Below, in pieces: positions 36,001-42,000 of a stretch of DNA of 64,000 nucleotides. Numbering within the stretch: the stretch's first letter is position 1; every line of letters begins with the position of its first letter. Made by a program: the position numbers. Origin of the DNA: an uncultured bacterium (lineage in GTDB: Bacteria > Vulcanimicrobiota > Xenobia > Xenobiales > Xenobiaceae); NCBI GenBank assembly GCA_934621605.1, contig CAKTUZ010000010.1:14580-78579 (forward strand), read 5' to 3'.

Positions 36001-39000
36001 CATCAGGACCGAACTGTTCTGGCTCAGTTAAAAGAAAAACTTCTAAAACATCACGTCCATGATCAAAAGTGGGACGATTACCCCAATAAGCCAATCCAGG
36101 CAACCTAAAAAACGCTCCGGATTCGGCATTTCCAGGACGAGTTAGATAACAAACTGCGGCAAAAACTCCACGCGGAGGCTTTACTAACATAGAATCGACT
36201 TCAATATTGGCCGTAGGAATATTCAAAGTGCGCCCTACTTTGCGACCGTGAATAATTTCACCGCCAACTCTATAACGCCGTCCCCACAAATGACAAGCTC
36301 TTTGCAACTGCCCATCTTCCACCAAACGGCGCAACAAACTCGATGAAATAATCTCATTATCCAAACAAAACGGTGCAATTATCTCGGTGGTAAAACCAAA
36401 TTCAGAGCCCAATTTTTGCAGCATCTGTACATCGCCTGCAGCACGACATCCAAAACGATAGTTATACCCAACTACAACTTGGGCAGCCTTAAGCCTTTCA
36501 ACCAAAACACAAGATACAAAGTCAGTTGGATCTATGGAAGCAAATTCACTATTAAAAGGTACAGCTACAGGCTCCAAGCCCATGTTTTTAATAATATTAA
36601 GACGCTCGTCTAAGGAACAAAGCAATTTGACTCCCTTATCCGGAGTTAAAATCCAGCTGGGGTGCTCTCTAAAGGTAAAAACCACAGGACGCAAACCTAG
36701 GCTGTAAGCCAATTCTTTAGTCTTATAAAGCAAAGCCGCATGGCCACGATGTACGCCGTCAAAAAAGCCCAGGGCAACCGCGCTGGGCTCAGAACCGAAA
36801 TTGTGCTCTGAAAAAAGGCTGTTCAAAGCAAAAAAATTATTCATCGAGGTAGACTTCAATATTGGCACCCTTAAGGGCTTCCAACTTAGCATTGGCCTCC
36901 TCCACAGTAGCGTAGGGAGTACTAGTAATTCTGTAGGCAGTACCACCTTCAACAGGGATCTCCTGGACTAAATAAGGTACGCCTTCCTGCTCCAAACGAG
37001 CTTCCAAAGAGTCGACTGTCTCTTTTTGCATAAAAGAGCCAAAGAAGAGCACCCGTCCGGACGTATTATTTCCAGCAGCAGAAGTTGCCGCACTGTTGCC
37101 GATGCTTTCACTAGAAGCCAGTTTGGCGTTCTCATTTCTCTGAGAATCTGATGCTCCAGTTCCACCACTCGAGCTGCCCCCCACAACCGAAGGCGTCTCC
37201 TGAGGCGTAATATCAATAACCGGAGTCCCATTGTCAGCTCTAACCACACCAGATACAGGCGTTTCGCTGACCGGCTCTACTACTAATGTATCGTCAGCTT
37301 TAGCTTCGACATTTTTATTGTTAATTCTGTCAAGTTCGTCTTGCTTATCCTTAGCCAGATTGCCCAACACAGGCGGAGTTCTGGTCGGCATAGCCGAAAC
37401 ACTGGAAACTTTGTCAGCGTCAGTTAAATATTTATCAACAGTCGTATGACCTAACATAGCCCCTATGACAGCGAAGACCCAAATAAGAGCAAAGCTGGTA
37501 AAGATCATCCTCATCCAAAAACCATCACGCTGCCGCTGAGCCTGAGCCATAATATATAAACCTCCTAAACTTAACGCAGCTAAAAAAAGTAACCGGATCT
37601 AAAGAGAGGCCTGACGCATCCACCCATTGGCGACAAAATCAAACCTCTCACCAATTGCCGAAGAAGAGCTTTTTCCCTTCCCAACCGAATATAGACAAAC
37701 GTACGCCCGCCTTCATCCCCGATATAAAAGGTAGGGAATTTTCGGCGGGGATATACTAAAGCTAAAGTTCTAAGGCCTCTTGAACACGCTCAAGCTTGCC
37801 GGGGATATCTCTGCGCCAGACAAATTCGGCAGCGCCCTTGTCTAAAATGCACACAATTACCGACTCATCCTTCAAAGGATAAATGGCCAACATCTGATTA
37901 TCAGTATCCACCATCAGAGCAAAACATTTACCGACATTAAGCTCAGAAAGATAATTGGAAGCAGCATCATACATACGAGCAGCGGCCATGGCCATATCAT
38001 CGCAATCCTGAGTCGTAGACTCTACTACCACATCATCCATAACTATAACAGCATCAAAGAAACTATCTATAACGGTGAGACCGACCAAACTCTTTTTGAG
38101 AGTATCATCTTTAACGAGACTACCGCCGTATTTTAAGGAACCTGTCTCTATAGTGTGGACGGCTAAAGTGAGATTGTCAGCCGCAGGATAAAGATCCAGG
38201 CAACCTGACTCACCGGCGATAAAGACACGTTGTACAGTTCCCAAAGCAGCTTCATCGGCGATACCGTTTATATTATTAATCAATTCCGGCTGGTAAGCGG
38301 CAGCCAATTCGGGATCGGAGAAAGTTTCCATTGCCCCCAAGAAAGGCATACCGTCATCCCCCACAATCATAGCTGAAGAGGTACCCAAATCAGAAACAGC
38401 ATTGAGATCGGCTTCTAAAACGTCAGGATCGTTATTTTCCAACAACTGCTCCAAAAGACGACTGACAATATCGCTAAGCGACTCGCTTCCGGCCGATAAG
38501 AAAGCCGGCAGATCGGGAGTAATTTCTTCAGAAGAAGGACTGACTTCACCCCCGGACTGAAGGACTTCTGATTCGGGAAGCTGAGACTCATCTTTGCCCT
38601 CTTTGAGGGGCTCGACAGGTTCAGAAATTTCCTCCGACGGAAGTTCGATAGAAGTAGCTTCATCTTCTTTTACAGACTCAATCGGAGCAGCTTTTTCGGG
38701 CAGTTCTTCAGTAACAGCTTCCGATTCGGGCTCAACGGTAACAGATTGCTCGTCAACGGATTCTTCAGTTAATTCAACTCCGGCAACTTCCGGCTGCCTA
38801 GAGTCAATTTTGTCTATAGAACTATCCAAAACGACAGTAGATTCAGTTTCGACTGCAGGCATAGCTCCATTTTCCTGCAAAACGGCAGCTTCTTCCGTGG
38901 CAACCGATTCTGCATCACTTTTCGGATCGACTACTTTGCTATCACTAACCAATTCAGACTCGGCAATATTTTCAACGGAAGGCTCATCCTTAGCCACTGT

Positions 39001-42000
39001 TTCGGCTATAACAACAGGCTCAACCTTCGGAAGATGTTCAGGTTCAACCTCAAGGACAACTTCATGAGAAGGTTCAGCAACCTTTTCCGGTACAGACACT
39101 TCCACTTCGGGAACACCTAAGAAATATTCACCGACGATGCGCCCCACACTGACACTGGTCATATCGTCAATACCTGCTAAGAAATCGCTGACTACAGAGC
39201 GGCAAGCACGATCGGAGATAGAGTTGATAGTCTCTTGCAAAGCGTCAATATCATTAACTATAAACATACGCTCGCCTTCAGCTTCGATAACTTTGTAAGC
39301 TTCGGCGCTGACTGTTCCGGAAGTTACGGCAAAAGTGCAATCAGGGTGGAAGAAACGACTGCGAGTAATAATACGAAAAACAGAATTGGCGTCCAATCCC
39401 TGCTCAGAGATGGAAAACATCAACAGAGAGCCCTTGTAGTCAGCGAAAACTTCACAGCTGTGATTATTGTCTTCACTGCGGAAAAGGATGTGCTCGCTGT
39501 CAACGCCGCAATCGAGCAAAGCGGCACCCACAGTGTAAGCCAACCACATATTGCGGCGAGCCAAAACAGCCCCTTGAGGGCAAACAGAAAGCGATTGCAC
39601 AATTTGCTCGTCGGAAATAGCCTTACCGCAATGGAAACAGCGGAAACCGCGCTTGGCAGCTTCATCCAAGGCTGCCAGGCTGGAGACACGACTTACCTTT
39701 TGGCCAGTTTCTTTACAAAAAACTTCAAACTCACAATTGATAATATTCATGTCGGCCATAATCTTGACATCTTCGCCGACTTCAAAAACGGAACGCCCCT
39801 GAGCAGCTTCAGGGAGAGAAACCACACCGCGTTCAGAGACAATTTTTAAAAGCTTACGTACGCCAGGACTGCGCAAACAAGCCGCAGCCTTGCGCTCCCA
39901 TTCGCCGACTGGCAAAGGCTCGGAGTCCTCACGCAGGAATTCAAAATAAGGCGAAACGACAGGCAATTCTTGACATTTAGCTTGAGGGACGGCCTTCTTT
40001 ACTGTTTCCAGATACTCTTCCCAAGTAGAGGCTCCTTTACTCTCATCCCAAGCTCCGCCGACGACTAAAGCTTTCTCTTCAGGCAAGAAGTGATAGTAGA
40101 ACATTTCACCGGCCGGAGTAACGACAACATCCCCATCCAAAGAAGCCAAATTGCTTCCTTTGCCCAACATTTCAACGAACTGCTCATGGCCACCGGATAT
40201 AACAGGGCAAAATTTTTGGCCGAGCAAGTTGGCCAAAACATTTTTGCTGTCGTTAATACTGTGAAGACCTGTCAATTTTCTGCGTACGAATTGCATATTA
40301 AAAACTAAACTCCTCAAACCACATTATTCGTCGCCGTCAGCGAAAAAAATTGCCGTTCGACTTCTGCAACCTCTCGGCAATTCCTTTGCTAAGTCGGCAG
40401 TTCAGCTCCATTGAGTTCTTAGCTAGAGCTCTTTTCATTGTTAAAAGCCGTTTTTTGTGGTAGATTGAGGAGATAGTGAAATTACCGGTGATCTTAAGCC
40501 GAAATCCTTAATTTCTCCGGGAAAAAGTATATTGAAAGAGTTATCGAAGATAAGGTCATATATTCTAAGGAGGTTAAATTTAATGCTGACGCCCTTTGTC
40601 AGGAAGACACGGATAAGCTCGTCCTTGCTTCTCGTTCTGGCGTTCCTAGCCGTTTTCTTGGCAATCCCTCATACGATTTTTGCCGCTTCTCCGGCCAGCG
40701 TGTTTGTTGACGGTATGCGTGTAGACACTACTCCTGTGGTTCGCGACGGCGTGACTTATCTACCCATACAAGTTATGGCTCAAGCCTTGCAAGCTGAGAT
40801 CATTTGGGATTCAAAACTCAATACTGTCAAAGTAAATGGTAAAGTTGCCTCTTCCCCCGTTTACAATAACGGCGGACGTATATATTTACCCGTAGAGACT
40901 TTCGTCGGTTCCATGGGCGGGTCCGTCAATTTTGATGGTCGTAGCAACCGCATACTTATTGTCACCAACAATAAAGGTTCTGCCAAAACGCAAACCGCTT
41001 CTTCACCCGTCAAACAAACTGTAAGCCAAAATACCTACGTAAAGCCTACGACTACTTCTAACCAACCAGTCGGCAATAACAGCAAAACTGGTGTCCAGGT
41101 CAACAATAGTTCTACCGTAAGCCAAACGTCCGGTTTTAATCAGCCTGGTACCCCTAACAGCTACGCCCCCAACCAAATTCAAACCAACGTTTCGCTGCGT
41201 CCAGTAGATGCCTCTCCTTATTTGGCTTCGAATTTGCAGCCCGGCCCTATCCAAGGCGTAAATACCATGCGCGGCGGTAGTGCTAACTTACCGTCCAATT
41301 CTCAACGCCCTCAGAATGGCCGTGTTTACGTACCCAAGAGTGCTAAGAACGAAGTCTTCCAAGTAACAGTCACTAACTTAGAGACTATCTCTATTTTGAA
41401 AGATTTCTATCGTCCTAAGGAAGGTTATAAGTACGTTATAGCTTATCTTTCACAACAAAATATCTCTCAACAAGTTCAAATTTATACCGGCCGTTTTTCT
41501 CTCTTAGACCAAAAGTCTAATTCCTACGATTACATAGAAGGATTAAGCAACTTTTGGCTAGTAATTTTACGGCCTTACGGCATTAACTTCGGCTATTTAG
41601 TCTTTGAAGTTCCCGCCGATTCCAAACCGGTAAGTTTGGTACTTCATTCCCTGAATCAGGCTCCGCTGTCCATAGATATTTAAGTAAATTGTTACTCCGT
41701 TTTACAGTTTCAAAGCGGAGGCAATTTTCTGCGTATTCTGGATTAAATGACCGACTTCAGAAATATAATTTTCCTTCTACGAAAGAAAAGGAGTTGCGTA
41801 AATATGGTGCCGAGAACGCGCCTTGCGTACATTGCGTCAATAGTCCTGGCTATCTTTGCTTTTGTCATCATTTGCGGAGCCACCGTGAGTCGTGCTGACG
41901 AGCCTGTAGAAATTACCTTCTGGCACGCCATGAGCAGATCTCGCGGTAAAGTGCTCGCCCAGCTGGTTGATGAATTTAACAAAGCTAACCCCAATATAGT

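Follow-up and report, generated by a model that had tools for sequence, protein, structure and literature searches.

What does a large acidic protein do when it ends in a fold typical of GTPase regulators and begins with some 400 residues in which no motif had been placed? The question is raised by a gene on the minus strand of a 64,000-nucleotide stretch of an uncultured gut bacterium (assembly GCA_934621605.1, contig CAKTUZ010000010.1, positions 14,580 to 78,579; hereafter the window). The host belongs to the UBP9/Xenobia lineage of the Vulcanimicrobiota (Eremiobacterota), its closest named relatives being Candidatus Bruticola metagenome-assembled genomes (MAGs) and its other relatives coming from rumen, human-gut and digester samples. 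A first-pass annotation of the gene, made by reading the DNA, had suggested a GTPase-activating protein (GAP) or scaffold acting on a small Ras-like GTPase. Our analysis gives good support to a three-part anatomy: a Can2/Mrr-like module made up of a winged helix, a three-cysteine site (Cys3) and a degenerate PD-(D/E)xK core, then a long acidic tether, and finally an intramolecular pair of Roadblock domains. As to function, we consider there to be about an even chance that it is a non-enzymatic cytoplasmic signalling or scaffold protein whose Roadblock pair docks a partner while the N-terminal module (N-module) binds nucleic acid or a ligand, and which descends from an operon of tetratricopeptide repeat (TPR), Roadblock and two-component genes.

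Domain layout and the N-terminal module

The open reading frame (ORF) at 37762..40317 of the minus strand has 851 codons and is initiated by TTG, and its full length had been taken as that of the protein. The real product is most likely 844 residues long and starts from the ATG at 40296, because all homologues begin in alignments with MQF[IV]R, which is codon 8 of the ORF, because a GAGGAG motif lies 13 nt before this ATG, and because an identical public protein (P0001, 100%) has 844 residues. Protein numbering, used below unless stated otherwise, counts from the Met at 40296, and ORF numbering from the TTG at 40317. The whole protein has an isoelectric point (pI) of 4.27, and all the sequence strings quoted in the first-pass annotation were found in it. 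Its features, with the evidence in brackets (AF2, AlphaFold2), are the following.

40310..40315, minus strand: Shine-Dalgarno-like GAGGAG, 13 nt upstream of the ATG at 40296-40294 (sequence reading)
37762..40296, minus strand: coding sequence, 844 aa and stop (P0001, homologue starts, GAGGAG)
39964..40296, minus strand: alpha/beta subdomain, aa 1-111, invariant MQF[IV]R start, fold class not settled (AF2, alignments)
39685..39951, minus strand: winged helix-turn-helix-like subdomain, aa 116-204, helical with a beta hairpin at its end (AF2)
39607..39717, minus strand: family signature and Cys3 site, C194-x2-T-x2-[QK]-x2-R-V-x-S ... G-x2-C220-x2-C223-G-x5-E230 (alignment of 150 representatives)
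39256..39579, minus strand: PD-(D/E)xK nuclease-fold core, aa 240-347, alpha-beta-beta-beta-alpha-beta (AF2, structural and profile matches)
39118..39249, minus strand: long C-terminal helices of the N-module, aa 350-393 (AF2)
38467..39102, minus strand: acidic E/V/S/P-rich low-complexity linker, aa 399-610, presumed disordered (composition, variable length, substitution rates)
38152..38427, minus strand: Roadblock domain 1, aa 624-715, with an Asp-Gly pair (PF03259, PDB profile matches, AF2, Foldseek)
37771..38100, minus strand: Roadblock domain 2 and C-terminal helix, aa 733-842, divergent, without Asp-Gly (AF2, hhalign)

The N-module of the window protein matched nothing in Pfam, NCBIfam, PADLOC or the PDB sequences; searches of the PDB sequences with the single sequence and with an N-module profile gave nothing significant, and NCBIfam returned only noise. 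An AF2 model built from a 12-sequence alignment (predicted local distance difference test score, pLDDT, 81; predicted template-modelling score, pTM, 0.73) contained the alpha-beta-beta-beta-alpha-beta core that characterises the PD-(D/E)xK superfamily, preceded by the winged-helix-like subdomain and a loop bearing Cys residues. The best structural matches were the CARF nucleases Cdn1, VC1899 and Can2, and others were AF1548, NucS, MspJI and AspBHI. As modelled, this module has the same layout as the nuclease half of Can2/VC1899 and as Mrr-like enzymes. The nuclease domain of Can2/VC1899 spans about 200 residues and carries an extra four-helix, two-strand element beside its core (PMC7969007), in agreement with the roughly 200 residues aligned in the N-module. 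The stretch of 400 residues that had resisted placement can now be read as the combination of a winged helix with a Cys3 knuckle and a degenerate, Can2/VC1899/Mrr-type PD-(D/E)xK fold. A third Roadblock was considered for the alpha/beta subdomain (aa 1-111) and rejected, as this subdomain has no profile similarity to the Roadblock units.

Weak ArsR/MarR matches were obtained in relatives. The protein could be conceived as a winged-helix transcription factor with the tandem Roadblock as its sensory or partner-binding input, but this is quite unlikely: the winged helix sits inside a larger nuclease architecture of the Can2 type, an extra helical/beta motif occupies the same place in Can2/VC1899 (PMC7969007), and the module is acidic.

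When the N-module profile was run against 1.84 billion cluster representatives, it retrieved 596 proteins at E<=1e-3, 425 of them at E<=1e-10. The family comprises about 600 clusters at 50% identity, with no above-threshold match in Pfam, NCBIfam or PADLOC, and occurs in two architectures, either fused to a tandem Roadblock pair (about 590-990 aa) or by itself (about 400-500 aa). Standalone members are found in Actinomycetota, among other groups, and no recurring neighbour was seen in the gene contexts examined; three of 15 gave a Mrr_cat match (best E 3.2e-4). In relatives, a PADLOC match was obtained to 'PD_DExK, same family as the one fused to CARF (1XMX)' at E 0.0037, which, like the Mrr_cat matches, corroborates the nuclease fold at the level of sequence.

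Most family members open strand 2 with an Asp (D282) and close strand 3 with E295-x-K297, typically within 'FELKD', which is the textbook PD-(D/E)xK placement. The window protein has E282, S295 and S297 instead ('MFSISEQG') and so lacks the catalytic D...(D/E)-x-K. The whole UBP9/Xenobia clade is without the Lys and usually also without the Glu, and an intact D/E-E-K set is present in 62 of 148 classified representatives and in 13 of the 46 that are fused to Roadblock domains. Since two of the three catalytic residues are replaced (E...SxS for D...ExK), the module most likely binds without cutting.

These substitutions also bear on a defence origin. The protein might be a decayed Can2-like, signal-activated defence nuclease whose N-terminal alpha/beta domain sensed a nucleotide messenger, as the identity of its best structural matches (Cdn1, VC1899, Can2) and the retention of D...ExK in many family members would allow. 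The Foldseek alignment with VC1899 likewise covers 292 columns, more than the nuclease half alone, albeit with a template-modelling (TM) score of only 0.35. We nevertheless regard this origin as very improbable: E295 and K297 are both Ser and D282 is Glu, neither Pfam nor PADLOC matched a CARF domain in the window protein, whose sequence gives no evidence of one, and the surroundings contain no CRISPR, CBASS or other defence genes. Moreover, the gene occupies one conserved housekeeping locus under purifying selection, unlike the turnover of defence islands. Assignment to a defence system had been tried and was rejected on the empty PADLOC result for the window protein.

The possible zinc ribbon of the first-pass annotation had been proposed from CEFEVFC...CFHCGK. 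Both motifs are present, at ORF residues 194-201 and 227-232, and the ribbon itself is not borne out. Among 150 representatives the conserved residues are C194 (96%), C220 (93%), C223 (93%) and E230 (97%), to which G224 and W251 (99%) can be added as conserved family-wide. In ORF numbering the three cysteines are C201, C227 and C230, spaced C-x25-CxxC; the first Cys of CEFEVFC (C194 in ORF numbering) is variable, and H229 (ORF numbering), inside the CxxC, is kept within the window clade only. A canonical zinc ribbon has two CxxC-type knuckles and four Cys/His ligands, whereas this family conserves one CxxC and the distal C194. A non-canonical metal site at Cys3 is plausible. The CxxC-G-x5-E string also bears a short and marginal resemblance to the Rad50 zinc hook (PF04423 in 2 of 15 members, P0160 among the relatives; PDB 1l8d at E 0.0098), and Cys3 could conceivably be an intermolecular, dimerising metal site instead of an intramolecular ribbon, a possibility that we offer as a lead only.

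Selection separates the conserved modules from the tether between them. The linker, earlier described as an acidic low-complexity segment of about 200 residues, indeed has 212 (E 21.7%, V 13.7%, S 13.7%, P 9%) with a pI of 4.05; its length differs among orthologues, and no meaningful tandem DNA repeats were found in it. When five close orthologues were compared (86-91% identical in both modules), the ratios of non-synonymous to synonymous substitution rates (dN/dS) were 0.04-0.06 in either module, N-terminal or Roadblock; with two Bruticola MAGs (71-81% identical) they were 0.07-0.11. The overall ranges, 0.04-0.09 for the N-module and 0.04-0.11 for the C-terminal module, reveal strong purifying selection, while the linker gave 0.33-0.55 over all seven comparisons. 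The low dN/dS of the N-module in spite of its degenerate site suggests that the nuclease fold is kept for a non-catalytic or unconventional role.

The Roadblock pair and its candidate partners

Roadblock/MglB domains are ancient regulators of small GTPases, involved in bacterial polarity and, in eukaryotes, in Ragulator, Rag and dynein. To our knowledge, almost all bacterial examples are single-domain proteins of about 120 residues. The first-pass annotation had recognised a roadblock/MglB-type end in the terminal ~120 residues of the window protein and had proposed AlphaFold as a check. Sequence and predicted structure both agree with this fold, in a region twice as long: the AF2 model of the C-terminus (pLDDT 92, pTM 0.89) comprises two tandem alpha-beta-beta-alpha-beta-beta-beta units (ORF residues ~631-851), of which the terminal ~120 residues are the second and more divergent.

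Pfam Robl_LC7 (PF03259) matched ORF residues 644-720, within the first unit, at a marginal score (E 4e-5; 23.7 bits, the cut-off being 23), and several orthologues carry a precomputed PF03259 match. A profile built on the last 234 residues of 12 family members matched the PDB Roadblock entries 7f8m (E 3.4e-4), 7f8f, 7yh1 and 9jue. Foldseek against the PDB gave TM scores of 0.78-0.82 and root-mean-square deviations of 1.9-2.5 A to 7yh1, 9jue (Prometheoarchaeum) and 3kye (Streptomyces), with MglB 6hjm, LAMTOR/Ragulator subunits and dynein LC7 among the lower matches. A profile-profile comparison by hhalign shows the two units to be mutually related (E 4e-5). An Asp-Gly pair (D655/G656, ORF numbering) is invariant in the first unit in 18 of 18 sequences and absent from the second.

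MglB, LAMTOR2/3 and the Rag C-terminal domains form a two-domain platform as dimers. In the window protein, the tandem units and the pTM of 0.89 suggest a fixed pair, and the intramolecular arrangement may serve as a built-in, dimer-like platform, of presumed geometry and with a presumed partner.

In its full form, the GAP or scaffold hypothesis holds that the protein is an MglB-type GAP or scaffold for an unlinked MglA-like small GTPase controlling a type IV pilus machinery. The Roadblock fold and the Asp-Gly pair of the first unit are what one would expect of it, as Asp-Gly is essentially the sole conserved feature of MglB homologues and its Asp lies near MglA in the co-crystal (PMC4316618), and a built-in two-domain platform fits the 2:1 MglB:MglA stoichiometry (PMC4316618). 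In addition, PilT-like ATPases occur in the window, and the TPR protein of ~1,220 residues encoded before distant orthologues recalls SgmX, a TPR protein of Myxococcus that is an MglA effector and activates type IV pili (PMC7519303, PMC7668184), although the two are set side by side by parts list only.

The genomic context gives the hypothesis no support. No small Ras-like GTPase is encoded in the 64-kb window, where the only P-loop proteins are HflX and three PilT/T2SSE-type ATPases, nor among the Pfam-annotated called genes of the twelve relative loci with gene annotation (L001-L007, L025-L029); for the 17 loci that came from the genome scan (L008-L024), the comparison covered a reference-protein panel and the N-module profile only. 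A coupled mglB is normally found no more than four genes from mglA (PMC4316618), and no small GTPase gene was found within about that distance here. Of 749 MglB homologues, 421 have a coupled mglA gene and the remaining 44% are orphans (PMC4316618). With so many orphans, the missing nearby GTPase weakens the GAP hypothesis and does not exclude it; we consider it rather unlikely.

The suggested link to PilT fared no better. The three PilT-like ATPase genes (1-573, 13083-14363 and 14382-15479) lie at a distance of at least 22 kb, show no conserved linkage to the gene and are separated from it by murein, transport and GTPase housekeeping genes; given this distance and the intervening genes, the link is without positional support and was rejected. 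All three PilT/T2SSE-type genes are on the minus strand (1-573 and the 12316-15479 region), the first being cut by the window start, and the tandem pair at 13083-15479 adjoins a gene for an FHA-domain protein (12316-13017) and RodA/PBP2 genes (9440-12305), an unusual mix of pilus-type ATPase, FHA and cell-wall elongation genes.

The locus and its probable ancestral operon

In the window, the gene is preceded by divergent Cu_amine_oxidN1/DUF4352 and SBP genes and followed, after a gap of 211 bp, by a SPOR-domain membrane protein gene, ribF and gcvT-H-P. The order target-SPOR-ribF-gcvT is kept in homologues down to ~42% identity, and the same chromosomal locus among housekeeping genes is found in orthologues down to 40% identity and in distant relatives aligned by profile. 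A scan of the gene flanks for promoters and terminators gave nothing informative.

The distant loci L025-L028, whose members have intact motifs, encode a TPR protein of ~1,220 residues, the homologue and a Roadblock protein of 111-116 residues, followed in three of the four (not L028) by a receiver-GAF-HisKA_3 kinase and a NarL-type regulator. In L025-L027, divergent Cu_amine_oxidN1 and SBP genes lie upstream of the TPR gene as they do beside the window gene, which identifies these loci as the same one. Two UBP9 relatives of 43% identity (L020, L021) have the TPR protein, the homologue, the kinase, the regulator, SPOR and ribF in this order, and in the window clade only the homologue is left before SPOR and ribF. 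As homologues of the TPR protein, the small Roadblock protein, the kinase and the regulator are all missing from the 64-kb window, the series indicates that the window lineage has lost all operon partners. The 'standalone giant protein' of the first-pass annotation is accordingly an apt description in this lineage and does not hold for the distant orthologues. In L025, a standalone N-module paralogue of 451 residues (18004-19374) is encoded downstream of the copy that is fused to Roadblock domains, at a distance of a few genes and past two response-regulator genes and a GNAT gene.

The conserved order of target, SPOR, ribF and gcvT might be taken to mean that the protein acts in cell division or at the septum together with the SPOR-domain membrane protein encoded downstream. 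This is extremely improbable, as the kinase and regulator intervene in L020 and L021, no SPOR gene adjoins the homologue in L025-L028, and the 211-bp gap separates the two genes here. The SPOR adjacency is best explained by deletion of the kinase and regulator genes and not by functional pairing, and SPOR was rejected as an operon partner.

Several other features of the window were recorded. A DUF58 and TgpA-like transglutaminase pair (43243-47462, plus strand) is syntenic with the target locus in most of its own clade (e.g. L002, L004, L008, L010, L012-L016, L023). A gene for a lipoprotein like CsgG, of the curli secretion channel family (28343-29287, minus strand), is followed by two ORFs without Pfam match (27581-28333 and 26946-27437, minus strand), and is syntenic in the Bruticola MAG L004. 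A protein with an N-terminal FHA domain (20806-22524, plus strand) ends in about 25 near-perfect tandem PAGAPR hexapeptides, which coincide with a GC-rich island (GC 0.53, 22001-24000) and overlapping spurious ORFs. The 879-residue acidic protein at 22619-25258 (plus strand) has a C-terminal FHA domain, extended stretches of GFDRDGYD-like repeats and a repeat of ~20 residues (QSEAQPYVEEY.HQDLTQ) that occurs four times. An Rfam search over the 64 kb returned no family at threshold, including no glycine riboswitch by the gcvT-H-P1-P2 and lipoate ligase genes (30967-35803, minus strand, and upstream).

Functional reading and comparison with known systems

In the mechanism that we propose, Module 1 (aa 1-398) would bind nucleic acid or another ligand without cutting it and would perhaps dimerise. 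A presumably disordered acidic linker of ~210 residues would join it to Module 2 (aa ~624-842), whose Roadblock pair would dock a protein partner, be it an MglA-like NTPase, a further Roadblock protein or a TPR protein, and this docking would couple the partner to whatever Module 1 binds. The partners in the ancestral operon would have been the ~1,220-residue TPR protein, a ~115-residue Roadblock protein, the receiver-GAF-HisKA_3 kinase and the NarL-type regulator, and the gut/rumen lineage of the window would retain this gene alone, under strong purifying selection.

Several points weigh against this reading. The pI of Module 1 is 5.0, an acidity that one would not usually see in a strong DNA binder. 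Active sites of the PD-(D/E)xK type are plastic, and the conserved E230, E282 and E298 may form a shifted or alternative active site. Were the first 111 residues a CARF/SAVED-like sensor, the signal to which the protein responds might instead be a nucleotide messenger. Finally, no partner for either module was identified in the 64-kb fragment, and the relative placement of the two Roadblock units comes from an AF2 model of only 12 sequences.

If the two halves communicate, the signalling or scaffold protein envisaged here would represent a new wiring of a Roadblock switch to a nucleic acid or ligand sensor, and would give a function to a widespread family unnamed in the profile libraries. If they do not, the analysis still provides a clean annotation of a hypothetical protein and a case of a nuclease fold retained past the loss of its active site. 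In either case, the protein joins a built-in Roadblock pair to a module with a nuclease fold and a winged helix, and this fusion is conserved across a largely uncultured lineage. A more ambitious view would see in the family a new class of regulated PD-(D/E)xK modules, whose Roadblock-fused branch joins a Roadblock/GTPase-type switch to DNA or a nucleotide messenger within an Eremiobacterota-wide 'TPR / nuclease-fold-Roadblock / Roadblock / two-component' pathway that would be a bacterial signalling system not recognised before, the gut lineage keeping its nuclease-dead core as an essential scaffold; we hold this view to be doubtful.

Both folds are known from other systems; their fusion appears not to be described in the literature that we searched, the coverage of which was incomplete, and it has no name in the databases searched. 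With the MglB and Roadblock-LC7 family (PF03259; MglB, MglC, CvnB, MfpD, LAMTOR2/3 and archaeal Roadblock proteins) the window protein shares the fold (TM score 0.8) and the Asp-Gly of the first unit, and its two units may lie side by side as in an MglB dimer. It differs in having these units fused in one chain and mutually diverged, in adding a 400-residue nuclease-fold module through a 210-residue acidic linker, and in having no cognate GTPase gene nearby.

Compared with Can2, Card1, VC1899 (DUF1887) and Cdn1, the window protein is without a sequence-detectable CARF domain, has an extra Cys3 knuckle and an added Roadblock C-terminus, and has lost the catalytic ExK. It is also without CRISPR association: no type III CRISPR or defence genes accompany the family in any of the loci examined, where the neighbours are housekeeping or signalling genes. 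From Mrr-like, NucS and AF1548-type PD-(D/E)xK endonucleases it differs in lacking both E and K of the ExK and in being encoded, within its lineage, by one gene copy at a conserved locus.

Actinobacterial conservons combine the kinase CvnA, the Roadblock protein CvnB, CvnC and the GTPase CvnD (PMC13343842, PMC13621833). Like them, the operon of the distant orthologues co-encodes a Roadblock protein and a histidine kinase. Unlike them, it has no DUF742/CvnC-like or small GTPase gene, its kinase is a receiver-GAF-HisKA_3 hybrid, and it includes a giant TPR protein and a nuclease-fold module. None of these operon partners is kept in the window, and of the conservon quartet (kinase, Roadblock, DUF742 and small GTPase) none is encoded there besides this gene. 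Like the Myxococcus polarity module (MglA, MglB, MglC, RomR, SgmX), the ancestral operon combines Roadblock proteins with a receiver-domain protein and a TPR protein of very large size; it lacks MglA, and the resemblance is one of parts lists only.

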